From assembly GCA_049523455.1 (NCBI GenBank), contig JBEKMW010000013.1, positions 8,513 through 72,512 of the forward strand: a DNA stretch of 64,000 nt, in the 5' to 3' direction. Positions 2,554 to 58,372 of the stretch are shown here, piece after piece. Below the pieces are notes generated by a model, which made no database searches, was not told where the DNA came from, and saw nothing but the letters and a program-made list of their open reading frames with translations. Position numbers and translations under genes: made by a program. The stretch is from Verrucomicrobiota bacterium. Its GTDB lineage: Bacteria; Verrucomicrobiota; Verrucomicrobiia; Limisphaerales; UBA11358. Position 1 is the stretch's first letter; the number at the start of each line of letters is the position of its first letter.

Positions 2554-2646
2554 CAGAGGTCGGAGGTCAGAGGTCGGAGGTCGGTGTTTCAGTGAACCGG
2601 TGTTTCGGTGTTTCAGCGTTTCAGTGTTTCAGCATTTCAGCGTTTT
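2554..2646. repeat. Mosaic short tandem repeat block: (RGAGGTC)x4 then (TTTCRGYG)x7
   Basis: Direct reading gives cagaggtcggaggtcagaggtcggaggtc followed by tgtttcag/tgtttcgg/cgtttcag/catttcag units. It fills the GT4-exosortase junction. Confidence 0.9.
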
Positions 2647-4292
2647 ACTTCAATGAGCTTGTCCAGCTCGCGGGCGAGGGCCTGCTTTGCCTGCTCCGGA
2701 TCATTCATGCCCACAATGACAAATTCCAAAACCTTCTGGCCCTTGTCGCCACGGCCTTCCCAGATCGCCCGAATCAGGTTAAACCGGCCGGACTCATGGG
2801 TTACATAGGCGCCGGTCTGGGCGCCGGCTTCCCAGCGGCAATGAAAGACCTGGGCTATCCCGTTGCCGGTTTGAAACCGGTAGCTGCGGATGGGCAACTC
2901 CACCCCGTGCACGTTCATCATGGTCAAATCCGGGCCGGAGAGGAGTTTATAGCCTGTGGCCGTGAGACAAATCTCCGGGGTGTGCCTTTTGGCGAGGTAA
3001 CCAGCCACCCGGCCCGGCAACCAACTGAAGTACGACGCGTCCCATTGCGTTCCATCGGATTCAGTCCAATCGGCTTGCCTGCCTTCGTCGAACCGCAGCA
3101 AATAGCGCGTCTTGGCGTCTATGGGCACTTCCTTTAAAGACGGATTGTCCCGGGGAAAAGTCAGGGTCCACGACGGGCCGGGCTTCAGGTGCGCCTCGCG
3201 GGAGCGATACCAAACCTGGACGCCGGCTTCCACGAGGCACAACCAGGCGAGCAGGGCCAGGGAAAAACTGGAGACCACGGACCACGGACCACGGACTACG
3301 GGACTACTGACTGCGGGACTACTGACCTCTGACCTCTGCTTTTCAGACGGTCCCGTAGTCTCGTTGTCTCGTTGTCCTGTCGTCCTTGAACTGCTTTCTG
3401 CTTTCTTCAACCCCACCGCCAAGCCCCAAAGAGTGAGGGTGCAAAGGATGGCTATGGTGACTCCGGCGGGGTCGTGGTAATCGGCAATGGCGGCGACCCC
3501 TTTTTTCGCCGCGATCAGCGTCAGCAACGACATGCGGCAGACATTGAACGCAATGGAAAACGCAAATCCGAGCGGCACCAGCAGCCAGCGGCGCCCGGTG
3601 CTCAACCGGTAAAATTCACCGAGAAACAGAGAAATCATCAAACTGCTTTGAAACGAGCGGATGCCACTGCAAGCTTCATCAATGCCCACCCATCCGCTGC
3701 CGACCTCGATGACGTTGCCGTGGGCGACTGCCGGCACGTCGAGCCATCCGAGCAACTCAACCACGATCGCTGCGCTGGCGCGCGTCAACTCTTGAATGAG
3801 TGGAATTTCGAAGATCGTCGGCCAGGGAATGGCGACAAAGAAGAAGCAAATCGGAAACGCCAATTGCTTCAGCCAACGTCGCCCCAAGCAGAGGTAAATG
3901 GCACAGAGCGTCAACCCAATGGCAATGACTCCGAGCGACCATTGAATGGGCCGCCATTCCGGGACGGCGGCTTCCACCAAACGGGTCGGCAAATAAAGGA
4001 AGGCCAGGGAAAAAGCTAAAATAGTGAAAAGCTGAAAAGCTGAAATCCGGCTGCTGACCACGGACCACGCACCACGGACCGCGGAGCTACTGACCACGGG
4101 ACTACTGACCACGGACCTCTGATCTCCGACCTCTGAAAAGCCGTGCCAGCGGCGGACGAGCAGGCCGAGGCAAAGGAAGGGAACCAGCAGGCCGTAGCCA
4201 TATTGCGGATCGGTCGTCCACTCCAGGCGCAGGTTGTTGATCAGCCTGAACCAGAGGTAGGCGAGCGGCAAGAGGACGATAAACCATCTCAT
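2637..4292 (-). CDS. Exosortase (EpsH/XrtA-like) fused to a C-terminal EpsI-family domain
   Basis: 551-aa polytopic ORF with the exosortase catalytic-Cys context GIDEACSGIRSFQS and a downstream AFNVCRMS Arg motif. A final TM segment precedes a soluble C-terminal domain (WTLTFPRD...IVGMNDPEQAKQAL) of EpsI type. It carries two repeat-derived in-frame inserts. Confidence 0.85.
   Translation of the reverse strand: MRWFIVLLPLAYLWFRLINNLRLEWTTDPQYGYGLLVPFLCLGLLVRRWHGFSEVGDQRSVVSSPVVSSSAVRGAWSVVSSRISAFQLFTILAFSLAFLYLPTRLVEAAVPEWRPIQWSLGVIAIGLTLCAIYLCLGRRWLKQLAFPICFFFVAIPWPTIFEIPLIQELTRASAAIVVELLGWLDVPAVAHGNVIEVGSGWVGIDEACSGIRSFQSSLMISLFLGEFYRLSTGRRWLLVPLGFAFSIAFNVCRMSLLTLIAAKKGVAAIADYHDPAGVTIAILCTLTLWGLAVGLKKAESSSRTTGQRDNETTGPSEKQRSEVSSPAVSSPVVRGPWSVVSSFSLALLAWLCLVEAGVQVWYRSREAHLKPGPSWTLTFPRDNPSLKEVPIDAKTRYLLRFDEGRQADWTESDGTQWDASYFSWLPGRVAGYLAKRHTPEICLTATGYKLLSGPDLTMMNVHGVELPIRSYRFQTGNGIAQVFHCRWEAGAQTGAYVTHESGRFNLIRAIWEGRGDKGQKVLEFVIVGMNDPEQAKQALARELDKLIEVKR
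3273..3408. repeat. Mosaic repeat block inside the exosortase ORF (linker between exosortase and EpsI domains)
   Basis: (GACCACG/GACTACG)n, then (GACCTCT)2, then the 72-nt element (3324-3394), then (CTGCTTT)2. It translates in frame as KKAESSSRTTGQRDNETTGPSEKQRSEVSSPAVSSPVVRGPWSVVSS. Confidence 0.9.
4010..4140. repeat. Mosaic repeat block inside the exosortase ORF (first loop)
   Basis: (GCTGAAAA)n, then (GACCACG-like)n, then (GACCTCT-like)n. It translates in frame as SEVGDQRSVVSSPVVSSSAVRGAWSVVSSRISAFQLF. Confidence 0.9.
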
Positions 4293-4293
4293 A

Positions 4294-4391
4294 AAGCGGA
4301 AATTGGGAAAGCAGAAAGCAGAAATAGGCCGAAACGCTGAAAAGCTAATATGCTGACATGCTAAGATCCTGAAAAGCTGACATTCTAAAAG
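4294..4391. repeat. Mosaic repeat block upstream of the exosortase start
   Basis: aaagcagaaagcagaaat, cgctgaaaagct, and gctaatat/gctgacat/gctaagat units. A related gctaacat family occurs at 12930-12985. Confidence 0.85.
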
Positions 4392-4426
4392 AATCGCTCC
4401 GGCTCCTGCCGCCAGTTCACATTGCT

Positions 4427-4669
4427 TTACCTTCCGTAGATGCGCGCCCTGCGTTCGGCGGTCATGGGCGTGGCCGGGCGGGTTTGCAACAGCAATGCCT
4501 CCAATTCATCCGCGTTGCGGAAGCTCGCGCCTTCGGGGCCTTGGCCCCGGGTGACGGCATCCAGCAACGCCAGCGCCTGGTGAATGACCTCGCTTTTGTT
4601 CGAGGCGCGTCCAGCGCGGATTTGCCGCTGAATGATCGTTTCGTAGTAATCAGTGCGCGTGTAACCCAT
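4427..4669 (-). CDS. ParD/CopG-like type II antitoxin (orphan; no toxin partner seen)
   Basis: MGYTRTDYYETIIQRQIRAGRASNKSEVIHQALALLD fits the ParD pattern (helix, then G-x-Y/A-x-S-x-SEV-I/V-x-x-AL-x-LL). The ORF track opens at TTG 4693; the first ATG is at 4669. Confidence 0.5.
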   Translation of the reverse strand: MGYTRTDYYETIIQRQIRAGRASNKSEVIHQALALLDAVTRGQGPEGASFRNADELEALLLQTRPATPMTAERRARIYGR

Positions 4670-4722
4670 ACCCTCACTGTAAACTATTGGCAAATGCTGT
4701 CAATCTCCTGAAAAACTAAAAT

Positions 4723-4774
4723 CCGACCTCTGACCTCTGACCTCCGCTTTTCAGCGTTTCAGTGTTTCAGCTTT
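4723..4774. repeat. Short tandem repeat block (GACCTCT)x3 + (TTTCAGYG)x3
   Basis: Direct reading: ccgacctctgacctctgacctccgcttttcagcgtttcagtgtttcagc. Confidence 0.9.
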
Positions 4775-5323
4775 TTCGGTGATGGTGCGTGGGCGCAAAA
4801 ACACTGCCGGGTTGCCGCCATAAATGCCAAAAGGTTCCAGATTTTTGGTCGCCGCCGAGCAAGCACTAAGCACGGCATGAGTGCCAACCGTAACGCCAGG
4901 GCCCACCCAGGCTCCAGCGCCAATCCAGACGCCGTCATCCACGATGATTGGCTTGGTGATCAAATCGAATGTGGCAAGCTGATAGTTATGGTTGCCCGTG
5001 CAAAGAAAGGCGCGTTGCGAGATACATACGTTGCTCCCAATCGTGATACGCTCCAGGTTCAGCAGCCAGCACTCCTCCCCCAACCAGACATGGTCGCCAA
5101 TCGTTAGCTTCCATGGAAACGTAATCTTTACCTGCGGCTTGATGGTCACGTTCCGTCCAATCCGTGCGCCGAAGGCGCGCAGCGTCACGCGCTTGAGCGC
5201 CGAGAAGCTGAATGGGCACAATCGAAACAGGAGGAGGCTGGCGATGAGCCAGAGGCCTTCCTTGATCGGCCCTGCGCCACGGTTGAAGCTGCCGGTGGAA
5301 TATTTGGAAAGGTCAAGGGGCAC
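4751..5323 (-). CDS. Hexapeptide-repeat O-acetyltransferase, WcaF-like
   Basis: The C-terminal 170 aa show a left-handed beta-helix pattern (IGDHVWLGEECWLLNLERITIGSNVCISQRAFLCTGNH...VDDGVWIGAGAWVGPGVTVGTHAVL). The track ORF extends to 5512 through repeat DNA and overlaps the next gene. I prefer GTG 5323 (VPLDLSKYSTGSF). Confidence 0.75.
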   Translation of the reverse strand: MPLDLSKYSTGSFNRGAGPIKEGLWLIASLLLFRLCPFSFSALKRVTLRAFGARIGRNVTIKPQVKITFPWKLTIGDHVWLGEECWLLNLERITIGSNVCISQRAFLCTGNHNYQLATFDLITKPIIVDDGVWIGAGAWVGPGVTVGTHAVLSACSAATKNLEPFGIYGGNPAVFLRPRTITEKAETLKR

Positions 5324-5331
5324 AGGAAAAA

Positions 5332-5440
5332 CAGAGGTCAGAAGTCGGAGGTCAGAGGTCGGAAACGGAAACGGCCACCTCACCCCGGCCCTCTCCCCCA
5401 GAGGTGGAGAGGGAGTGAGGTCGGAGGTCGGTGTTTCAGC
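5332..5440. repeat. Mosaic repeat block with an embedded REP-type hairpin
   Basis: (RGAGGTC)n, ggaaacggaaacgg, the hairpin ccctctcccccagaggtggagaggg, (GGAGGTC)2 and tgtttcagc. Confidence 0.85.
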
Positions 5441-5451
5441 TTGGCAGTCTT

Positions 5452-6636
5452 TTACGATTTGACGTCGTCGGGTCTTGAGGCGTTTCCGGCTAGCCACTCG
5501 TACACCCTGCACATGCGGACCGCGATGGCCGGCCAGGTGTAATATTGTTTCACCAGATCCTGTCCCCGTTGTCCCATGGCCTTTCTTTCGGCATCGGAGA
5601 GTTTCAGGATTTGGCGGAGTCCCTGTTCGACGGCAGTAGCCTGGGGTGAAATTTCAATGGCGGCTCCCGATTTTGCGAGCTCTGGAAAATTGCACTCCGG
5701 AGTGAGCAAGACCGGCAGGCCGGCGGCGGCGGCTTCGAGAATCGCCACGCTGAACCCTTCGCTGAACGAGGGAAGCACAAACGCGCTCGCGGCGGCCAGC
5801 ACTTGTCGCTTGTCCCTCCCCTGCAACGGGCCCAGGAAGAGAACACTTTTCTCCAAAGCATATTCTTTCACGCGGGCCTTTAATTCCATTTCGTAAGCCG
5901 GCTGGCCGGCTCCGGCAATGAGCAGGCGCCAATCCTTGCAATCGCCCGCTACCGCCTGCCACGCCTGCAACAGATTTACCAATCCCTTCTTGGCATGGAG
6001 GCGGGACAGAAACAAGACACCCCGGCGACCGGCCAATTCCGGGTATCGGTCAACGATCTCCGTCGTCGGCGGATTTTCGATTTCCGGCATATCCACTCCA
6101 TTGGGAATAATGGCAATCGGATTCTTCAGCCCATAACGGCGAAAATGATCGGCTTCCGCCTCGCACAGGGCGTGCAGGCAATCGGCTTCCCGGAGATTTC
6201 TGTCTTCGAACAGCCACGCCGCGATTTTCTTCTTCAGGCGCGAATGCTCCAAGGCCCACGGTTCAAGCATGCCGTGGGGTGAAATGACCAGCGGGTAACG
6301 TCCCTTGACCGCGCATTTCCGGGCCGCCGTACCCGGATGCATCCATAATCCATGACTATGGATGATACCGCCGGGACGAATATGCGCCCGCAATTGAGCA
6401 GTCAACCCGGGTGAAAATCCAATGGCTTTGGGTCCCCAAATCCTTCCGGCGACCACCGGCACATGATTACCGGTGCAATCCTGGTCGGTCCATTGATCCT
6501 TTAGGCCATGGATGGAGCACGGGAAACCCCGGCGACTGGTCTCTCGCGCCAGCGCCCAAACGACCGGCGGGATGCCGCCGCCCTGGCGCGAAAGCCATGA
6601 CGTAACGTGGACCACACTGGTAGTTGAACTTCCCAT
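5452..6636 (-). CDS. Glycosyltransferase, GT4
   Basis: 394-aa ORF. Its C-terminal Glycos_transf_1 signature is VLPSFSEGFSVAILEAAAAGLPVLLT. Confidence 0.85.
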   Translation of the reverse strand: MGSSTTSVVHVTSWLSRQGGGIPPVVWALARETSRRGFPCSIHGLKDQWTDQDCTGNHVPVVAGRIWGPKAIGFSPGLTAQLRAHIRPGGIIHSHGLWMHPGTAARKCAVKGRYPLVISPHGMLEPWALEHSRLKKKIAAWLFEDRNLREADCLHALCEAEADHFRRYGLKNPIAIIPNGVDMPEIENPPTTEIVDRYPELAGRRGVLFLSRLHAKKGLVNLLQAWQAVAGDCKDWRLLIAGAGQPAYEMELKARVKEYALEKSVLFLGPLQGRDKRQVLAAASAFVLPSFSEGFSVAILEAAAAGLPVLLTPECNFPELAKSGAAIEISPQATAVEQGLRQILKLSDAERKAMGQRGQDLVKQYYTWPAIAVRMCRVYEWLAGNASRPDDVKS

Positions 6637-6644
6637 TTAATCAA

Positions 6645-6776
6645 TGTTTCAGTGCTTCGGTGAAACCGGCCCACCGGCTCACCGGTTCACCGGTCCACCG
6701 GCCCACCGGCCCACCGAAACACCGGCTCACCGGTCCACCGGCCCACCGAAACACCGCCCCACCGAAACACCGCCCC
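6645..6776. repeat. Octamer tandem array (CACCGGNC / CACCGAAA)x~14
   Basis: caccggctcaccggttcaccggtccaccggcccaccgg...caccgaaacaccgcccc. It spans the GT4 / GT4-kinase junction and encodes the last residues of the 839-aa ORF. Confidence 0.9.
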
Positions 6777-9246
6777 ACGCGGCCATCAGTCTGCCTGCGT
6801 CCGGCACACCACAGCCGTTTCTGAACGCGATCGCCAGCATGATATCCAATCGCCGTTGCGCGGAATCATCCGGCAGGAAATGCGCTCGAAACTTCGCAAG
6901 CTGGGCAGCGGGATCGCGCGGAACTTTGCCGACGGTGAAAGACATGAAAAAGCCAACGGCATCCGTCAAGACGGGAGCATCCGGATGGCTTAATTCCCAG
7001 TCGAACAGCCAGGTGCAGGAGCCATCAGTGACCATGTTTGACAGCGCCAAGTCACCGTGAGCCCGGCACACTTCCGCCCCGGAAGCCAGCAAGCGGGTCA
7101 ATTCCTCATGAAAGTCCCGATGCTCCGGGCGAAGACTTTGGATATATTCGGTCCACCATGACAGCCCGGTGATTTCGTCCCTGGTCATTCGTCTGCGGAG
7201 TCCGCAATACTCCGCGGTTAATACGGAAGTGCCCCAATCCTGTTTCAGCAAAGGCGGGCGTGCTTCAGTCGGCAGCGGTTGAACGACCAGATAGCTCGCC
7301 GGGCCGAAGTGATCGTGCCTTATTAACTGCGGCACGCGGAGCTGCCGGAAGGTCAGCTTGCTCAATGCTGCCAGGGCCTCGGCCTGTGCCGCTAAGCGGG
7401 GCCGGTCCTCCGGTCGCAACGCCAGTTTGACAAAGGCAAATGAACGCAAATGCTCGTCGAGCAGGTGAACATAGAAACGACGGCGCCAGGGTTCCGATGG
7501 CCAGCTTACGATAGGATGCGCTATGCGCCGGCCAAGATGTTCTTCGAGTTCCCGTTGCCAGGATTTAAAGTCAAAATTTAAGGCCGGCTCTATTGGTCCG
7601 GCGCGCCGCCTGGCCAGCAGCCGGGACCCGCCCGTTCGGATGGCCGCTGAAAGCAACGTGCGGTAAAGCTGCCGTTTGGGCGTAAACGGTTGGAATTTTT
7701 CCAGACCGGCCCGCAACAATGCCTTCGATTTTTCCGGAACGGCCAGCACATCCCTGCCTTGGTAGCGAAAAACGAGAAAATTGTGGTCATCTTCGCCGGT
7801 ACCTGCTGCGCGGCCATCAACCTGCTTGCCCGAATCATCCGTTGGCTGGCTCCGGAACCCGTGAACGAGAGCGGAGACGGAAAAATTGTCAACCAAACCC
7901 GGATTCGGCGCGGCTGTTCGCAACGCCGTGTCCACTGCCTGCCGCAAGCCGTCCGCAAACCGCGCCGGGCCCCAGTTGGCGATGATCTCACGGCTCTTGG
8001 AGCCAAAAGCTGAAATGCTGAAACGCTGAAACGCTGAAATACGAAGCATCAGCGAGGCAAGCTGTTCGACGTTGAACGGATCAAAGGTGAATCCATTAAC
8101 GCCATCTTTTACCAGGTCCCTGGCGCAACCGCAGCGGTTGGAAACCAGCACGGGCAGGCCGGCGGCCATCGCTTCGTTCACCACCAGGCCCCATTGCTCG
8201 GTCGAGCTGGCATGGACGAAAGCGGAAGCCATACCGTAGTAGGCTGGTAGTTCATCGTATTGCTTGAAGCCGGGCAAGTGCACGAAGTGCTCCAAGCCAA
8301 GCGAAGATCGAAGATCGAAGATGGAAGATTGGAGCGGGCCGTCGCCCAATAGGACCAGGGACCACGGCACCACCAGACCACTGACCACCGGACCACCGAC
8401 CTCTGACCTCTGCCTCTCAGACGGTCCCGTAGTCTCGTAGTCTCGTTGTCCCGTAGTCCTTGAACCGCTTGCCGCCCTCTTCCGATACAGCGCATACGCT
8501 TGGATCAATCGCGTAAGGTTCTTCTTCTCGACGAACCGCGCGCTCGCCAGAAAGTATTTGTCCGGCAACCCATACTGAACGCGGACCTCCGACCTCTGCC
8601 TTTCAGACGGACCCGTAGTCTCGTTGTCTCGTTGTCCCGTAGTCCTTGAACCGCTTTCTACTTTTCCTTCCACGCCCTCTTCCTTCTTCCTTTTCACTTC
8701 ATCCGCTCCGGCGGCGAAATGGGCGTTGTCCACGGCGTCATAGCCCAAAAAAATCCGTTCCTGTGGCAAGCCTAGCTGCTGCAAGTATTCCGCGTGGGGA
8801 GATCCGCCGACCAGACCTGTCGAGCACAAGCGCACCACGCGCCGCTTCAATGCTTCTTTCCACCATTTACGCTCATCATCCCACGCCGTCGTCTCAGACA
8901 TGACCACGACCGGGACATGGCGAGCCATGCACCAACGCATGGCGGCCAGGGAACAGCGGTCGTACCATCCGGGAACGGCTACGACTTGTGGAGCAAGCTG
9001 GTCCAAGGCCTCGCCGACACGCTTGAAGATGCGGTTGGCCGGCAACTCATTGACCGGGGTCCCGGAAAACAGCGTCAACCGGTCGAACCCATCGGAACCT
9101 TCCACCAAGTCCCAGGCATAGGTGAGATCCACGTTCGAGAACTCCACCGCGGTCACGCGCAACCGTGAACCGGCGGCCTTGAGCCGCGCGTAATGATACG
9201 GGCCAATCCGGTAAAACAGCACAGCCACGTGTGGGACATTAACCAT
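6727..9246 (-). CDS. Fusion ORF: N-terminal GT4 glycosyltransferase + C-terminal APH/choline-kinase-like phosphotransferase domain
   Basis: 839 aa. The GT4 core is FVHASSTEQWGLVVNEAMAAGLPVLVSNRCGCARDLVKDGVNGFTF. The C-terminal half has a kinase catalytic-loop pattern, CRAHGDLALSNMV (HxDxxxxN), followed by LFDWELS. Repeat-derived inserts lie at 8302-8469, 8584-8655 and 8005-8042. Confidence 0.7.
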   Translation of the reverse strand: MVNVPHVAVLFYRIGPYHYARLKAAGSRLRVTAVEFSNVDLTYAWDLVEGSDGFDRLTLFSGTPVNELPANRIFKRVGEALDQLAPQVVAVPGWYDRCSLAAMRWCMARHVPVVVMSETTAWDDERKWWKEALKRRVVRLCSTGLVGGSPHAEYLQQLGLPQERIFLGYDAVDNAHFAAGADEVKRKKEEGVEGKVESGSRTTGQRDNETTGPSERQRSEVRVQYGLPDKYFLASARFVEKKNLTRLIQAYALYRKRAASGSRTTGQRDYETTGPSERQRSEVGGPVVSGLVVPWSLVLLGDGPLQSSIFDLRSSLGLEHFVHLPGFKQYDELPAYYGMASAFVHASSTEQWGLVVNEAMAAGLPVLVSNRCGCARDLVKDGVNGFTFDPFNVEQLASLMLRISAFQRFSISAFGSKSREIIANWGPARFADGLRQAVDTALRTAAPNPGLVDNFSVSALVHGFRSQPTDDSGKQVDGRAAGTGEDDHNFLVFRYQGRDVLAVPEKSKALLRAGLEKFQPFTPKRQLYRTLLSAAIRTGGSRLLARRRAGPIEPALNFDFKSWQRELEEHLGRRIAHPIVSWPSEPWRRRFYVHLLDEHLRSFAFVKLALRPEDRPRLAAQAEALAALSKLTFRQLRVPQLIRHDHFGPASYLVVQPLPTEARPPLLKQDWGTSVLTAEYCGLRRRMTRDEITGLSWWTEYIQSLRPEHRDFHEELTRLLASGAEVCRAHGDLALSNMVTDGSCTWLFDWELSHPDAPVLTDAVGFFMSFTVGKVPRDPAAQLAKFRAHFLPDDSAQRRLDIMLAIAFRNGCGVPDAGRLMAAWGGVSVGRCFGGPVDR
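8302..8469. repeat. Mosaic repeat block inside the GT4-kinase ORF, including copy 2 of the 72-nt element
   Basis: (CGAAGAT)x4, then gaccac-type units, then the element at 8398-8469. The element region translates in frame as ...GSRTTGQRDYETTGPSERQRSEV. Confidence 0.9.
8584..8655. repeat. Copy 3 of the 72-nt element inside the GT4-kinase ORF
   Basis: gacctccgacctctgcctttcagacggacccgtagtctcgttgtctcgttgtcccgtagtccttgaaccgct. It translates in frame as GSRTTGQRDNETTGPSERQRSEV. Confidence 0.9.
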
Positions 9247-9761: not shown

Positions 9762-11333
9762 TCAGCTTTTCAGCGTTTCAGCGTTTCGGACGCCTCGCAC
9801 CCCCCGCCTGGGCCAGGCGCGTTGGATAACCGTGAACCTGGGTCGGCGGAGCAAACCATAGCCGGGCCTTGGCGAGACTGCCGAAGGTTGACCGCTGACT
9901 ACCGGACCACGGACCACCGGACTACTGACCACCGGACTACTGATCACGGACCTCCGACTTCCGGGCGCTGGCGAGCGATGGCGCTCGACCCACCACACCA
10001 GCAGCGCGCCGAAGGCAAAGGGATAAAGGGTGATGAGCGTGATGTCGCGGCCCAGGTTGAAGGTGAGAATCATTCCCAGCGCATACAGCGGCAGACGGCC
10101 AAACTTCTGGATGTTCAGGTCCAGGCGCGCGAGGATGGCCACCCAGAAAGCCATGAGCAGCGCGGCAAAGGCCGGTCCGAGGATGCGCCCGAAATTCACG
10201 ACGCCCTGGCCAATCATGCCGGTGGAGATGGTGGCATAAGCGCCGGCCGCGCCCGCTTGGCCCGTTCCTTGTCCGCGGGCGATGGCGTAATCAATCCCAA
10301 TCAGGGGTTTTCCGGGCCAGAACCGGCGGGGAATGGGATTCACGAGTTCGGCAAAATAGCGCGCGCCCCAATTGGGTTTGTAGGTTCCCTCCACTATGAA
10401 GGTGTTGACCCAGCACAACTCCTCAAACATGTTCAAGCCCTCGTGGTGGACCCGGGCATTCTCATGCACGCTGAATCCCTTTGTCTTGAGGGCTTCGACG
10501 ACGCTCATGCTGGAACGGTTGGCGATGACAAATCCCATCCAGGCGTTGACCAGCACGAAACAACCGGCGAGCACCGCGAACCGTTTCCACATTCCGCCGC
10601 GCATTCGCAAAAACACCCAGCTCAACAGACCGGGGACGACGACGGCCAGCATCGAATTACGGACACGGGAAAAAATGAAAAAGGGCCAGGACAGGAGACA
10701 ACAGAGCAGCGCCAGCCAGCGAATCCGGCGATTGGTGGAGAGCGCGGCCACCACGCCGAACAGGCCGGCAATCAGCAATTGCAGGTATAAGGCCACGATG
10801 GAGAGAAAATCAAAACCTGTGCCGACGCGCCCGTGACCCCAGGGGTTGGCCTGGTACCCAAGGAACGGGAAGAAGAAGTAGAGAACCGCACTCTGGAGTC
10901 GGATAACGGCGATGATGCAGAGGATGAGCCAGATGGAGGCGCATCCATAAAACAAGCGGGTCAACTGCCTCTGAAACCCCGGCTGGCCGACGCCGAATTT
11001 GAACAATTGCAAGACGCCGCTGGTCCCGCGAAGATACCGCCTGTTGAGCCAGCGATGAAGCGCCGGGGCGGCCAGCAGAAACACCGTCAGGAACCAGGCC
11101 ACCTGCCACCAAGCGCTTTGGAGGATGCCCGGTTCGAACACCTTGGCATGATAATCGGCATAATCATTGTAAAACGCGTCACCGACGTACCACGCGGCAA
11201 TCGTCCCCAACACCGCCAGGGTCGGCAGGCCGGTGCCGTCGCGCAGATGCCGGACGGCCCAGACGGCGCCGAGAGCGAGCACGGCGATGACTGCCCAGAA
11301 GGCGAGAGGGAGGATGGAGAGGGTTGAGGACAT
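9762..11333 (-). CDS. Polytopic membrane protein, probable Wzy-type repeat-unit polymerase
   Basis: 523 aa with about 10-12 hydrophobic segments and a large loop (HENARVHHEGLNMFEELCWVNTFIVEGTYKPNWGARYF). It sits among GTs next to no other polymerase candidate. The C-terminal tail is repeat-derived (VISSPVVSSPVVRGPVVSG). Confidence 0.55.
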   Translation of the reverse strand: MSSTLSILPLAFWAVIAVLALGAVWAVRHLRDGTGLPTLAVLGTIAAWYVGDAFYNDYADYHAKVFEPGILQSAWWQVAWFLTVFLLAAPALHRWLNRRYLRGTSGVLQLFKFGVGQPGFQRQLTRLFYGCASIWLILCIIAVIRLQSAVLYFFFPFLGYQANPWGHGRVGTGFDFLSIVALYLQLLIAGLFGVVAALSTNRRIRWLALLCCLLSWPFFIFSRVRNSMLAVVVPGLLSWVFLRMRGGMWKRFAVLAGCFVLVNAWMGFVIANRSSMSVVEALKTKGFSVHENARVHHEGLNMFEELCWVNTFIVEGTYKPNWGARYFAELVNPIPRRFWPGKPLIGIDYAIARGQGTGQAGAAGAYATISTGMIGQGVVNFGRILGPAFAALLMAFWVAILARLDLNIQKFGRLPLYALGMILTFNLGRDITLITLYPFAFGALLVWWVERHRSPAPGSRRSVISSPVVSSPVVRGPVVSGQPSAVSPRPGYGLLRRPRFTVIQRAWPRRGVRGVRNAETLKS

Positions 11334-11542: not shown

Positions 11543-12892
11543 TCAAACGTCATCGGCGGTTTCAATGGTTGCATTTCTTCTCTCCTCTCTTCCCTCTTCC
11601 CTCTTCTGCTCCACCAACTTGCGCAGATTCTCTCCCAGCGTTTCCAATGTGAACTGGCGGGACTTGGCCAGCGCGGCCTCCCATTGCGCGGACAATAAGT
11701 CCGGTTCGGTGAAATAACGGCGGATGGTGCCGGCCAAAGCCCCGGCATCCCGCGGCGGAACGACGAACCCATCCACGCCGTCACTGACGATTTGCCCGCA
11801 GCAAGGCGTGGCGATGACCGGCAGACCGTGCGCCATGGCCTCCAATTGGGTGATGGCAAACCCATCCGATAACGTCGGCAACACGAACAAATCCGCCTTG
11901 CAATACCACTCGGGCGCTTCGCGGGGGCTGACCGGCCCGTGGAAGGTCATATTTTTGGGCGCGGATGCCACTGCGGCCGGCAGAATTCCGATTCGGCCAA
12001 CGATATCGAAACGAATCCTCTCCGGTTCGAGCATCCGGGCCGCTTCCATCAGGTAGTGGATGCCTTTGCGGACGTTGACTTGGGCGAGGAACAGAACGCG
12101 GAGCGGTGCTTCGGTATTTCGGTGCTTCGGTGTTGTAGTGTTTCGGTGCTTTAGTGTTTCAGATTTCAGCGTTTCAGCTTTCAGATTTTCAGCGTTTTGC
12201 TCAAACGCCAGCGGCACGACGACGAGCTTGTGCGATGGCACGCCTTGTTTCATGAGGGCTTTGCGGCTCCACTCAGAATTGACTACGATGCGGTCAGCGA
12301 GCTCCCATTCGCGGCGGTTGCGGTCGTAATAGGCCGCCGGAAACATTGGCGGCGGACCAGCCAGTTGCGGGAAGCGGGCCATCTCTTCCGCCACCAATTC
12401 GAACTCCGCCGCACCCGGATCAATCTGATCCAGTATCGTCAAGATGCCGCGCTTCTTTTCCGCCACGAGCATTTCCAGGCTGGCGTAGGAATAACCGAAG
12501 AAAGCGTCATGGGGCGGCAGGTTGAGCCGGGCGACGGCGGCGGCAAAGGCGGCATCGGTGTGAAGGTACGCCTCGTGACTGCGTCCCTGGGCCGTCAGCC
12601 GGCGCACGCGCCATTTCCAGAACAAGCTGCGGACGGGAAAAGCATGGACCAGGTCGTCCGGGAGGCCGTCGGCGTGAGCCGCCAAGGCCGCGCGGCTGCG
12701 GCCGGCGAAATGCTGAAACGCTGAAACGCTGAAACGCTGAAATAATTTCTGCTTTCTGCTTTCCCCATTTCTGCTTTCGTATCCAAACCCATACCAATCG
12801 GTGACCAGGGCGGCGAGCATGCCATGCTGGTGCAGGGCGCGTGGCACGGCGTAATGTTCGCGCGCGCCGATTTGGGAAACAACGATTTTCAC
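11543..12892 (-). CDS. Glycosyltransferase, GT4
   Basis: 449 aa with LPTLSDGFAITQLEAMAHGLPVIATPCCGQIVSDGVDGFVV. GTG start. Two repeat-derived inserts lie at 12709-12778 and 12106-12197. Confidence 0.8.
   Translation of the reverse strand: MKIVVSQIGAREHYAVPRALHQHGMLAALVTDWYGFGYESRNGESRKQKLFQRFSVSAFQHFAGRSRAALAAHADGLPDDLVHAFPVRSLFWKWRVRRLTAQGRSHEAYLHTDAAFAAAVARLNLPPHDAFFGYSYASLEMLVAEKKRGILTILDQIDPGAAEFELVAEEMARFPQLAGPPPMFPAAYYDRNRREWELADRIVVNSEWSRKALMKQGVPSHKLVVVPLAFEQNAENLKAETLKSETLKHRNTTTPKHRNTEAPLRVLFLAQVNVRKGIHYLMEAARMLEPERIRFDIVGRIGILPAAVASAPKNMTFHGPVSPREAPEWYCKADLFVLPTLSDGFAITQLEAMAHGLPVIATPCCGQIVSDGVDGFVVPPRDAGALAGTIRRYFTEPDLLSAQWEAALAKSRQFTLETLGENLRKLVEQKREEGREERRNATIETADDV
12106..12197. 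repeat. Octamer array (TTTCGGTG / TTTCAGNN) inside the GT4 ORF
   Basis: Translates in frame as NAENLKAETLKSETLKHRNTTTPKHRNTEAP, between the two Rossmann halves. Confidence 0.9.
12709..12778. repeat. (GCTGAAAC)x4 + (TTTCTGC)n block inside the GT4 ORF
   Basis: Translates in frame as ESRNGESRKQKLFQRFSVSAFQHF. Confidence 0.9.
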
Positions 12893-37370: not shown

Positions 37371-37462
37371 GTCCTCCGACCTCTGTTTTTTGGAATGCCC
37401 CGTGGTCTCGTGGTCTCGTGGTCCCGTGGTCTCGTAGTCCGTGGTCAGTGGTCAGTGGTCAG
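37371..37462. repeat. Mosaic repeat block (GACCTC, GTGGTCN units)
   Basis: cctccgacctctg...cgtggtctcgtggtctcgtggtcccgtggtctcgtagtccgtggtcagtggtcagtggtcag. Confidence 0.9.
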
Positions 37463-57789: not shown

Positions 57790-58372
57790 AGGCTGCATTG
57801 GGACCATGAACCTGCCGATGCCCCGCGGGCCTCCGAATACGAATGCTGCCCGCTTGCTGTTCCCTCTCCGCTCCCATTCTGATGGGAGGGGAGACTTTCC
57901 CTCGCCCGCAGGAGCGGGAGAGGGTGGCGCGATAGCGCCGGGTGAGGGTTGTAGGGAAAGCACAAGCCCCTGCGGTCAGGGTGGCGATAGCGCCGGGTGA
58001 GGGTTGTAGGGAAAGCACAAGCCCCTGCGGTCAGGGTGAGGTGAGGGCTCTTTACTTTCATTGGATGTTGGATGCTGGATGTTCGATGTTCCCCGGCTCA
58101 TGGAGAGCCTCCTTTCGCTTTTGCGCATGCACTGGGACCATGAACCGGACGTAAGCTGCCAGTCTGCGGAGCCAGGTTCGCGGGCCACCTGCTGTTCCCT
58201 CTCCGCTCCCATTCTGATGGGAGGGGAGAGGGTTAGGGTGAGGTGAGGGTTCGGTTCATGGAGAGCGAAGTCGGGCGACCCCAGCCTGTAAGCTTTTCAG
58301 TTTTTCAGCGTTTTAGCGTTTCAGAACGTCCCGTAGTCTTGTGGTCTGTGGTCTGTGGTCTGCAGTTCCCGT
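57790..58372. repeat. Composite cluster of REP-type hairpins, a ~55-nt tandem duplication and heptamer/octamer arrays
   Basis: ctgctgttccctctccgctcccattctgatgggaggggaga occurs at about 57857 and 58190. gggaccatgaacc occurs at about 57800 and 58133. The tandem units are at 57924-57980 and 57981-58035. (TTGGATG)n is at 58060-58090. Tttcag and gtggtct units are at 58296-58372. Confidence 0.85.

Follow-up and report, generated by a model that had tools for sequence, protein, structure and literature searches.

The stretch of DNA considered here, referred to throughout as the window, comprises 64,000 nucleotides (nt) of contig JBEKMW010000013.1 from a soil Verrucomicrobiota bacterium whose genome (assembly GCA_049523455.1, here G000) is a draft of 4.86 Mb in 219 contigs. 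It carries genes for exopolysaccharide (EPS) production, two of which contain between them three copies of a 72-nt module within their coding sequences (Table 1). The first host gene codes for an exosortase that is recognized by the PF09721 model with an E-value of 2e-38; some of its homologues match PF11984 (EpsI family), and its best alignment to the NCBIfam models is with the long XrtD type at a score below the cut-off. The second encodes a GT4 glycosyltransferase fused to a domain of the aminoglycoside phosphotransferase (APH)/kinase-like type. The glycosyltransferase part is predicted to assume a GT-B fold with high confidence (predicted local distance difference test score, pLDDT, 90.2; predicted template modelling score, pTM, 0.88), its best matches in the PDB being BshA and MshA, and the two glutamates of its EX7E motif, E350 and E358, are invariant in 95 sequences. 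For comparison we used a contig from a sister species (L033), which shows 89-92% nucleotide identity in the common genes with a synonymous divergence (dS) of 0.23-0.76, and two conspecific assemblies from other samples (L034 and L066). The GT4-APH fusion is kept in the sister species, and relative to it the ratio of nonsynonymous to synonymous substitution rates (dN/dS) is 0.16 for the exosortase gene and 0.15-0.24 for the genes of the locus. A preliminary description of the window, made from its letters alone, had named pseudogenization of the hosts as a finding that would undo its interpretation; judging from the dN/dS values, the invariant EX7E residues and the confident structural models, both hosts are intact genes under purifying selection. 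The GT4 core also occurs in other lineages (P0034, P0040, P0041, P0047 and others), where it is fused to a methyltransferase, a sulfotransferase or a second GT4 domain, and these varied C-terminal fusions point to a modular family of tailoring enzymes in exosortase-linked EPS loci.

Table 1. Features of the window discussed in the text, numbered from its first letter
Feature	Position	Strand	Content and product
Host gene 1	2637-4292	-	551-aa (amino acid) exosortase with C-terminal EpsI-like domain
Arm B of copy-1 hairpin	3273-3322	-	(GACCACG)/(GGACTACB) arrays on the plus strand; encodes SSPAVSSPVVRGPWSVVS
Copy 1	3324-3395	-	arm A octamers and loop heptamers; encodes SSSRTTGQRDNETTGPSEKQRSEV, aa 300-323 of the exosortase-EpsI-like protein
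Second composite repeat block, exosortase gene	4008-4136	-	SEVGDQRSVVSSPVVSSSAVRGAWSVVSSRISAFQLF; loop between transmembrane helices; residues 62-81 with pLDDT <50
Host gene 2	6727-9246	-	839-aa GT4 glycosyltransferase fused to APH/kinase-like domain (Pfam)
Site 4, octamer array	8005-8039	-	(AAACGCTG)x4.4; encodes ISAFQRFSISAF; helix-turn-helix near the GT4 C-terminus
Site 3, heptamer array	8302-8329	-	(CGAAGAT)x4, found by TRF; encodes SSIFDLRSS, alpha-helix of the GT4 C-domain
Arm B at site 2	8353-8397	-	GGPVVSGLVVPW; orthologous to the sister array and to 'SPVV...PWSLVLL' of many orthologues
Copy 2	8398-8469	-	GT4 site 2, aa 260-283 of the 839-aa protein; encodes SGSRTTGQRDYETTGPSERQRSEV
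Copy 3	8584-8655	-	GT4 site 1, inter-domain connector, aa 198-221; encodes SGSRTTGQRDNETTGPSERQRSEV
Purine-rich array adjoining copy 3	8656-8704	-	encodes KKEEGVEGKVE; 7-nt TCTTCCT run at 8678-8704 (TRF)
Intergenic relative, family D10	37373-37460	+	(GACCTCY), short spacer, (GTCYCGTGGTC)n; 81% to element positions 3-61
Intergenic relative	58283-58362	+	(TTTCAGCR)n, GAAC, then (GTCCCGTAGTC / TGTGGTC)n

The preliminary description had reported three near-identical copies of the module, all read in one frame, and both observations are borne out, with copy 1 proving to be one base longer than first noted. With copy 3 as the query, blastn against the whole assembly aligns 72 nt of copy 2 at 94.4% identity (E = 8e-26) and 68 nt of copy 1 at 92.6% (E = 5e-21), an agreement far in excess of chance; mutually the copies differ at 4-6 of the 72 positions, as against the dS of 0.23-0.76 between the two species. 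All three are read from the minus strand at offset 0 of the host frame as [S/G]SRTTGQRD[N/Y]ETTGPSE[K/R]QRSEV. Two of the three sense frames are indeed open, namely frames 0 and 1, with a single stop in frame 2, and copies 1 and 3 have one open antisense frame as well. As several frames of the 72-mer are thus open, the common frame, which would arise by chance in about 1 in 4 to 9 cases, is not significant on its own. The term dispersed, which had been applied to the module, is partly right: shorter relatives do occur elsewhere, but the full 72-mer is present just three times in the genome, over a distance of 5.3 kb. There is no fourth full copy in the assembly, where all other blastn matches are restricted to the octamer part (positions 27-63), and a search of 120 genomes of the genus yielded no 72-mer. 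Exact-pattern scans with the junction of arm and loop likewise recovered nothing from the genome_contigs set and a conspecific contig only from the metagenome_contigs set. L066, at 98.6-99.6% identity, has all three copies base for base, and L034, at 99.6-100%, covers copy 1 and has it unchanged; this agreement between independent assemblies excludes misassembly.

Examination of its internal structure revealed that the 72-mer is itself composed of repeats, reading on the plus strand as (GACCTCY)2, one CTTTTCAG unit, (GTCYCGTW)4 and a short tail. Together with its flanks (149 nt, 3262-3410) copy 1 forms a long imperfect hairpin with paired columns of about 45-55 nt in each arm, for which we obtained folding z-scores of -4.2 as DNA, -4.5 as sense RNA (-55.4 kcal/mol) and -6.7 as antisense RNA. 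Copy 2 with its adjacent arm B folds mainly as sense RNA (-70.2 kcal/mol, z -4.95), whereas copy 3, which has no arm B, forms no hairpin (z +0.2 and +0.8). Copies 1 and 2 thus belong to long imperfect hairpins of about 110-140 nt in all and copy 3 is without a second arm. Because the flanked copies 1 and 2 fold and the bare conserved 72 nt do not, the conserved unit is best described as arm A plus loop rather than as a whole palindrome. Arm B at site 2 must be older than copy 2, since it is orthologous to the array of the sister species and to the corresponding peptide of many orthologues. These results do not sustain the notion of a discrete element inserted three times, as the 72 nt are a hairpin fragment, that is an arm and a loop, made of tandem units of 7-8 nt. 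Strand asymmetry of the hairpins was considered as a sign of a role in RNA and dropped, given that the sense strand gives the better fold for copy 2 and the antisense strand for copy 1. No Rfam family reached its gathering score anywhere within the window.

Comparison with the sister species allowed us to order the copies in time. L033 has the 72-nt module in the exosortase linker only, and the two GT4 copies are therefore the younger ones. At GT4 site 2 L033 instead shows (GGAGGTC)x12 followed by the same arm B, and at site 1 about 130 nt of other content that ends in (GGACTACG)-like units and (GACCTCC)3. The flanks of the two GT4 copies match L033 perfectly up to GTAGAAAGC at site 1 or GGAAGARGGC at site 2, re-align with it from TCCGCG or the (RGAGGTC)n array, and enclose wholly different content; the left edge of the replaced tract is marked by the purine-rich array next to copy 3, which is common to both species. 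The edges of the donor lie at corresponding points, GCAGAAAGC and (CAGAGGTC)2, so that donor and targets have in common a 5' motif of the (GAAAGC) type and the 3' motif (RGAGGTC)n. Comparison of the junctions with L033 uncovered no target-site duplication at any of the three copies. The variable positions fit the same order of events: copies 2 and 3 share GGACTACGGG with the linker copy of L033, where copy 1 has two private changes, and they also have two derived states in common. The three independent insertions that had been proposed are not supported by this comparison, for copy 1 is older and common to the sister species, and copies 2 and 3 overwrote repeats at sites which are repeat-filled in nearly all orthologues.

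The proteins themselves point to the same sites as places where repeats accumulate. The preliminary description had suggested mapping the inserts onto AlphaFold models and orthologue alignments, and by both measures the copies are extra sequence in low-confidence, disordered surface loops. The peptide of copy 1 is modelled as coil at exosortase residues 309-336 (pLDDT 41-46, with 80.4 for the whole model), that of copy 2 at GT4 residues 265-295 (pLDDT 54-63) and that of copy 3 at GT4 residues 194-219 (pLDDT 57-70). In an alignment of about 120 GT4 orthologues, the best of them 65% identical, the inter-domain connector (site 1) ranges from 0 to 86 aa and the segment before strand 296-300 (site 2) from 0 to 82 aa, and these segments hold varied repeat-type peptides, among them SEVRxQxSEVR, AESRNK, AEMLKTETLK and TTDN-type sequences. 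In two congeners the orthologues either have little or none of the additional sequence at the GT4 sites or contain unrelated content there. The exosortase linker likewise spans 31-140 aa across 120 orthologues and is made of varied repeat-derived peptides; in 24 of these a 'TTG/TTD' arm is followed by a 'SVV/PVV' arm, a co-occurrence with a Fisher P of 2e-6, uncorrected for relatedness. The loops are hypervariable, long-standing hot spots for repeats. Additionally, at the 8 variable sites of the three copies 5 differences are synonymous in the frame used, as against 2 and 0 in the other frames (expected fraction 0.25, P = 0.027), which weakly suggests translation under mild constraint.

Repeats are not confined to disordered segments. 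The heptamer array of site 3 encodes a helix (residues 306-315) that lies within blocks of mean pLDDT 96-98, and its orthologues retain the same fixed length while showing variants with a periodicity of 7 aa: SSILNLR in 15, SDLCHLI in 30 (including the sister species) and STLNSQL in 25. These grade into ordinary helices such as LRPALESQIATLNL. Three heptamers correspond to seven codons and hence to about two helical turns, and an array of heptanucleotides (3 x 7 nt = 7 codons) is thereby able to encode a working amphipathic helix. We also observed translated arrays in nearby EPS genes, which encode a 523-aa polymerase-like membrane protein and a 449-aa GT4, at 9871-9956, 11587-11606, 12095-12197 and 12697-12788, where they read SSPVVSSPVVRGPVVSG, EEGREERR, NLKAETLKSETLKHRNTTTPKHRNTE and ESRKQKLFQRFSVSAFQHF. 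The genes for the 449-aa GT4 and for the exosortase have four validated arrays each, the genome maximum being five. Another octamer array, (ACCGGCCC)x15 at 6665-6784, extends across the 3' end of the 839-aa open reading frame (ORF) into the following spacer; some 19 codons at the end of this ORF (...GGVSVGRCFGGPVDR) come from the array, and the sister protein stops earlier, at ...AWANHPN.

The units of which the module is built belong to a much larger set of tandem repeats, which crowd the window as well as the whole genome. With a TRF score of at least 40 the source genome contains 475 arrays of period 7 and 157 of period 8, as opposed to 1 and 3 in a genome simulated with a Markov-3 model. 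After removal of overlaps 617 arrays remain, 356 of which (58%, with ~18% expected at random) are intergenic and 161 within called genes. For 115 of the 161 genic arrays, in about 79 genes, the best coding potential lies in one frame across both flanks, a test that is passed by 82% of random internal gene positions. An inverted partner within 250 nt accompanies 111 of the 617 arrays, against 8 in the control. An orientation or stop filter among the genic arrays (57 with antisense-only stops, 10 with sense stops) was not used, being circular with genes that are defined by ORFs. Arrays of period 10 are in excess too (195 versus 7 simulated at the same score), and so are those of periods 14-16, which are composites of 7 and 8.

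Across the genome partial matches to the module keep the order (GACCTCY)n, (TTTCAGCR)n, GTTTCCGAMC and (GTCCCGTRGTC)n. Using (GACCTCY)2 and (GTCYCGTRGTC)2 as anchors we recovered 12 loci with this order and 1 with the order swapped; 8 of the ordered loci are intergenic, 1 straddles a gene end and 3 are the copies studied here. A type copy of about 330 nt (C33:38110-38440) consists of a unique head (CCCCATTTAACCAATTACCATTTAACGACTTAAC) and tail (CGAATGCGCGACCKTCGCCTATTCA) around variable arrays, the head alone being found at ~20 loci. It gives 23 strong matches in the source genome and one marginal match in 40 congeners, making the composite repeat species-specific. The preliminary description had considered that a predominance of intergenic copies, combined with genic copies in all frames, would speak against tolerated in-frame insertion, and in respect of the wider family the first half is what we found: 66 of its 75 full or partial loci (88%) are intergenic, 6 are internal to genes and 3 straddle their ends. 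The three genic copies are the shortest members of the family and keep a single TTTCAG unit, whose reverse complement, CTGAAA, would as an array place TGA in every frame.

Based on these observations we consider it rather probable that the 72-nt module is the stop-free core of a composite repeat, which has been copied between repeat-filled loops and whose copies are translated passengers rather than functional modules. The ancestral copy would be that of the disordered linker which joins the exosortase and EpsI-like domains, where it formed part of a long imperfect hairpin common to the sister species. After the two species had split, the arm and loop would have been copied from this linker into the GT4 gene 5 kb away, and the second GT4 copy would derive from the first at a distance of 186 nt, both targets being loops that already held other repeat arrays, the prior content of which was replaced. 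The copying was probably anchored by homology, as in ectopic gene conversion or template switching; we prefer this to transposition because the ends fall in motifs present at donor and target and there is no target-site duplication. Three properties may have allowed the copies to persist, namely a length that is a multiple of three, a stop-free orientation and frame, in which the stop-bearing (TTTCAGCR)n of the intergenic family is cut down to one unit, and a location in surface loops where extra disordered peptide would be harmless. The earlier likening of the copies to tolerated Rickettsia inserts accordingly stands as regards extra peptide carried in frame in the surface loops of selected genes, and falls as regards an inserted element.

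Several points weigh against this proposal. We infer both the direction and the mechanism of copying from the sequence comparison, and the mechanism depends on two pairs of junctions, at which the common motif measures only 7-10 nt. No genomes intermediate between the source genome and L033 were found, and the GT4 copies may have been lost in the L033 lineage and not gained in the present one. That the copies are translated is likewise something we infer, the synonymous excess resting on just 8 sites. The orthologues are mutually related, so that statistics over orthologue counts are overstated, and the genic and intergenic tallies depend on genes called by a crude self-trained ORF scorer.

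A different account would see in the module a small non-autonomous mobile element, resembling a miniature inverted-repeat transposable element (MITE) or a repetitive extragenic palindromic (REP) sequence, which was moved in trans by PF05635 machinery or a Y1 transposase and inserted three times independently. We regard this as unlikely, although it is the strongest of the alternatives. A family that is species-specific, keeps a fixed module order at 75 loci and is essentially missing from 40 congeners implies recent spread, and a candidate for the machinery exists. L033 has within 7140-7860 a PF05635 gene (23S rRNA intervening sequence (IVS) protein, Avd-like), which occupies the spacer separating the genes for a 394-aa GT4 and a hexapeptide transferase, some 1 kb away from the exosortase gene. 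Octamers of the types GGACCACG/GGACTACG/GAGACNAC take up roughly 260 nt upstream of it, and an inverted (GTCCCGTA)4.6 array lies downstream; the octamer array agrees with arm A at 32 of 37 positions, with an alignment score of 49-57 compared with a maximum of 24 for shuffled sequences. The same spacer in the source genome (5300-5452 of the window) is gene-less and has about 140 nt of (GACCTCY) arrays around a different, GGGGAGAGGG-type hairpin, and the cassette is hence a presence/absence difference between the sister species. PF05635 genes are present in 40 of 41 genomes of the genus, with 1-13 in each; all three in the source genome lie within inverted heptamer arrays of different units, and at 19 of 30 loci sampled the two flanks are inverted repeats of each other with a period of 7 or 8 nt, their scores exceeding the 95th percentile obtained with mismatched flank pairs.

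Against movement of this kind stand the absence of target-site duplications, the copied unit not being the whole hairpin, the confinement of the three genic copies, as a subfamily of their own, to 5.3 kb, and targets that were already occupied by repeats and have their junctions in shared motifs. A MITE was rejected for want of such duplications, the edges falling in motifs shared with the differently filled sites of the sister. Moreover, the five Y1-transposase genes and three reverse transcriptases of the source genome are not beside these repeats or the PF05635 genes; neither type of enzyme is encoded adjacent to a PF05635 gene there. A link to diversity-generating retroelements (DGRs) was discarded, the three reverse transcriptases being on other contigs than the PF05635 genes. 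A link between the repeats and REP-associated tyrosine transposases (RAYTs) was also discarded: the genome has five PF01797 matches, and no array of this kind lies in the flanks of the four that were inspected.

The bond between PF05635 genes and arrays is an association, and that gene-less hairpins derive from such cassettes is a hypothesis. In its boldest form, which we find doubtful, the arrays and hairpins would be the footprint of an undescribed mobile cassette in which inverted heptamer arrays enclose a PF05635 gene. Arms and loops without the gene, whether remnants of such cassettes or copies made from them, would then spread between loci that share units and keep rewriting the surface loops of enzymes, and even one heptad-periodic helix. 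The copies in the EPS genes would represent one visible step of a genome-wide process of loop hypervariability, in which loops are targeted by sequence and not by a diversity-generating reverse transcriptase. The literature offered nothing specific on a connection between PF05635 and heptamers or on heptamer repeats in Verrucomicrobia, and PF05635 cassettes with the same arrays offer a testable lead on the origin of dispersed heptamer repeats.

It is improbable, in our assessment, that the module is functional and was recruited, either as a flexible charged linker peptide or as a hairpin in the mRNA at which ribosomes would be slowed between domains so as to assist folding or insertion into the membrane. 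In its favour, two of the three sites, namely the exosortase/EpsI linker and the GT-B inter-domain connector, lie where domains meet, hairpins of -55 to -70 kcal/mol are predicted for the sense RNA at copies 1 and 2 and also in the sister linker, the frame used shows the mild synonymous excess noted above, and peptides of the arm-A and arm-B types follow each other in fixed order in the 24 linker orthologues already mentioned. Yet the content and length of the sites vary freely, even between sister species, and the insert is missing altogether from some orthologues; copy 3 forms no hairpin, the mRNA strand is not favoured, copy 1 folding better as antisense, and the same repeat families are mostly intergenic. 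The recruited linker that the preliminary description had offered as an alternative is retained only as a rival reading, as nothing requires it.

Still less probable is a role as contingency loci, in which slippage of the 7- or 8-nt units would toggle the EPS genes by phase variation. In its favour are units that are not multiples of three in genes for surface polysaccharides, and the GT4-APH gene of L033 is out of frame exactly at its (GGAGGTC)x12 array (L033 3447-3531), where by frame arithmetic 13 or 10 units would give a single frame of 861 or 854 aa, both halves being under purifying selection. This frameshift, which amounts to one unit and is suggestive for that array only, could, however, be an assembly error, each unit type occurs just 2-4 times within the three copies, and most arrays of these families are intergenic. 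Among the source genome, L034 and L066, three conspecific assemblies that differ by ~1%, the copies show no difference in unit number, on which basis a contingency locus in this species was rejected.

Finally, an artefact, whether by misassembly or by pseudogenes read through by chance, is very improbable: the assembly is a draft, repeats are prone to misassembly and one database version of the GT4 gene is in two pieces, but the independent assemblies agree base for base over the copies, the hosts have the low dN/dS values, confident folds and invariant EX7E motif described above, and the break in the split version lies well outside any repeat. That version, from a JGI contig, has the GT4-APH gene in two ORFs, P0330 of 224 aa ending in ...RSEVRVQ and P0331 of 553 aa starting with VVSGLVVPW, and the break just before Tyr225 is likely a point nonsense change.

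The proposed copying between repeat-filled loops has partial parallels in known systems. Rickettsia palindromic elements (RPEs; Ogata et al. 2000, as summarised in Di Nocera et al. 2013, PMC3733652) are described as hairpin-capable repeats found in frame within functional genes. The present case resembles them in being hairpin-capable repeat DNA that contributes in-frame extra peptide at tolerant sites, with a family that also occurs between genes. It concerns another phylum, and we claim an analogy and no sequence relation. Unlike in RPEs, the arms here are modular, tandem 7-8-nt arrays of which a fragment (arm plus loop) alone was copied, and the targets are long-lived repeat hot spots with swapped content, not one-off insertions. 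The whole-element palindrome of RPEs (~100-150 bp) is approached by copies 1 and 2 in their ~110-140-nt hairpins, whereas copy 3 and the bare 72 nt do not fold.

REPs of the GTAG/CGTC type and dimers like bacterial interspersed mosaic elements (BIMEs) are abundant in Verrucomicrobia and numerous in Opitutus terrae; a minority lie wholly inside ORFs, where they encode 20-30 (up to ~80) residues, and some genes are hit twice (Di Nocera et al. 2013, PMC3733652). Our family is likewise mostly intergenic with a minority inside ORFs. It differs in lacking a 20-40-nt palindrome headed by GTAG/CGTC, its units being direct tandem heptamers and octamers and GTAG occurring only inside the octamer CCCGTAGT.

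A structural counterpart is provided by dispersed heptamers: the short tandemly repeated repetitive (STRR) sequences of cyanobacteria (Mazel et al. 1990, as cited in PMC4692102), the GGGNATC heptamers of Xanthomonas and Nostoc (Rehm et al. 2015, PMC4692102) and the TAACTGA repeats of Beggiatoaceae (MacGregor 2015, PMC4679880). These occur at many loci in 2-26 units, are over-represented between genes and frequently form convergent pairs; one orientation stops all three frames, and genic copies are in the other orientation at protein peripheries (PMC4692102, PMC4679880). Enrichment of the array excess between genes and frequent inverted pairs are both seen in the source genome as well. In contrast to those reports, which involve one or a few units per genome and rare genic copies, here dozens of families are chained in a preferred order, and arrays sit in internal loops, and even in one structural helix, of conserved enzymes. 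The PF05635 four-helix-bundle proteins, which are related to the Avd of DGRs (PMC10053308), are reminiscent of the rRNA IVS in that a small gene lies inside a long inverted repeat; the arms are usually tandem heptamers in this genus and belong to the arm-A octamer family in the sister species. The three copies studied here differ in carrying no gene, and no reverse transcriptase is adjacent in the source genome. Taken together, the case behaves like in-frame palindromic repeats and is built like dispersed heptamer repeats.

Translated intragenic repeat DNA is already known from Rickettsia and REP-rich bacteria, and the present example is unusually well resolved. Two of the three copies can be dated by means of the sister species, the junctions suggest copying from one repeat site to another in place of transposition, and hundreds of orthologues show that two conserved EPS enzymes had the same loops refilled repeatedly with different 7-8-nt arrays. 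For annotation this is a warning that such 'low-complexity' loops are driven by the DNA and not by the protein.

A further difference between the two species concerns an 88-aa antitoxin-like ORF at 4427-4693, which stands alone between the exosortase and hexapeptide transferase genes. Its sister orthologue (L033 11856-12107) is directly upstream of a ParE toxin gene, and the 88-aa ORF looks like a relocated orphan antitoxin.

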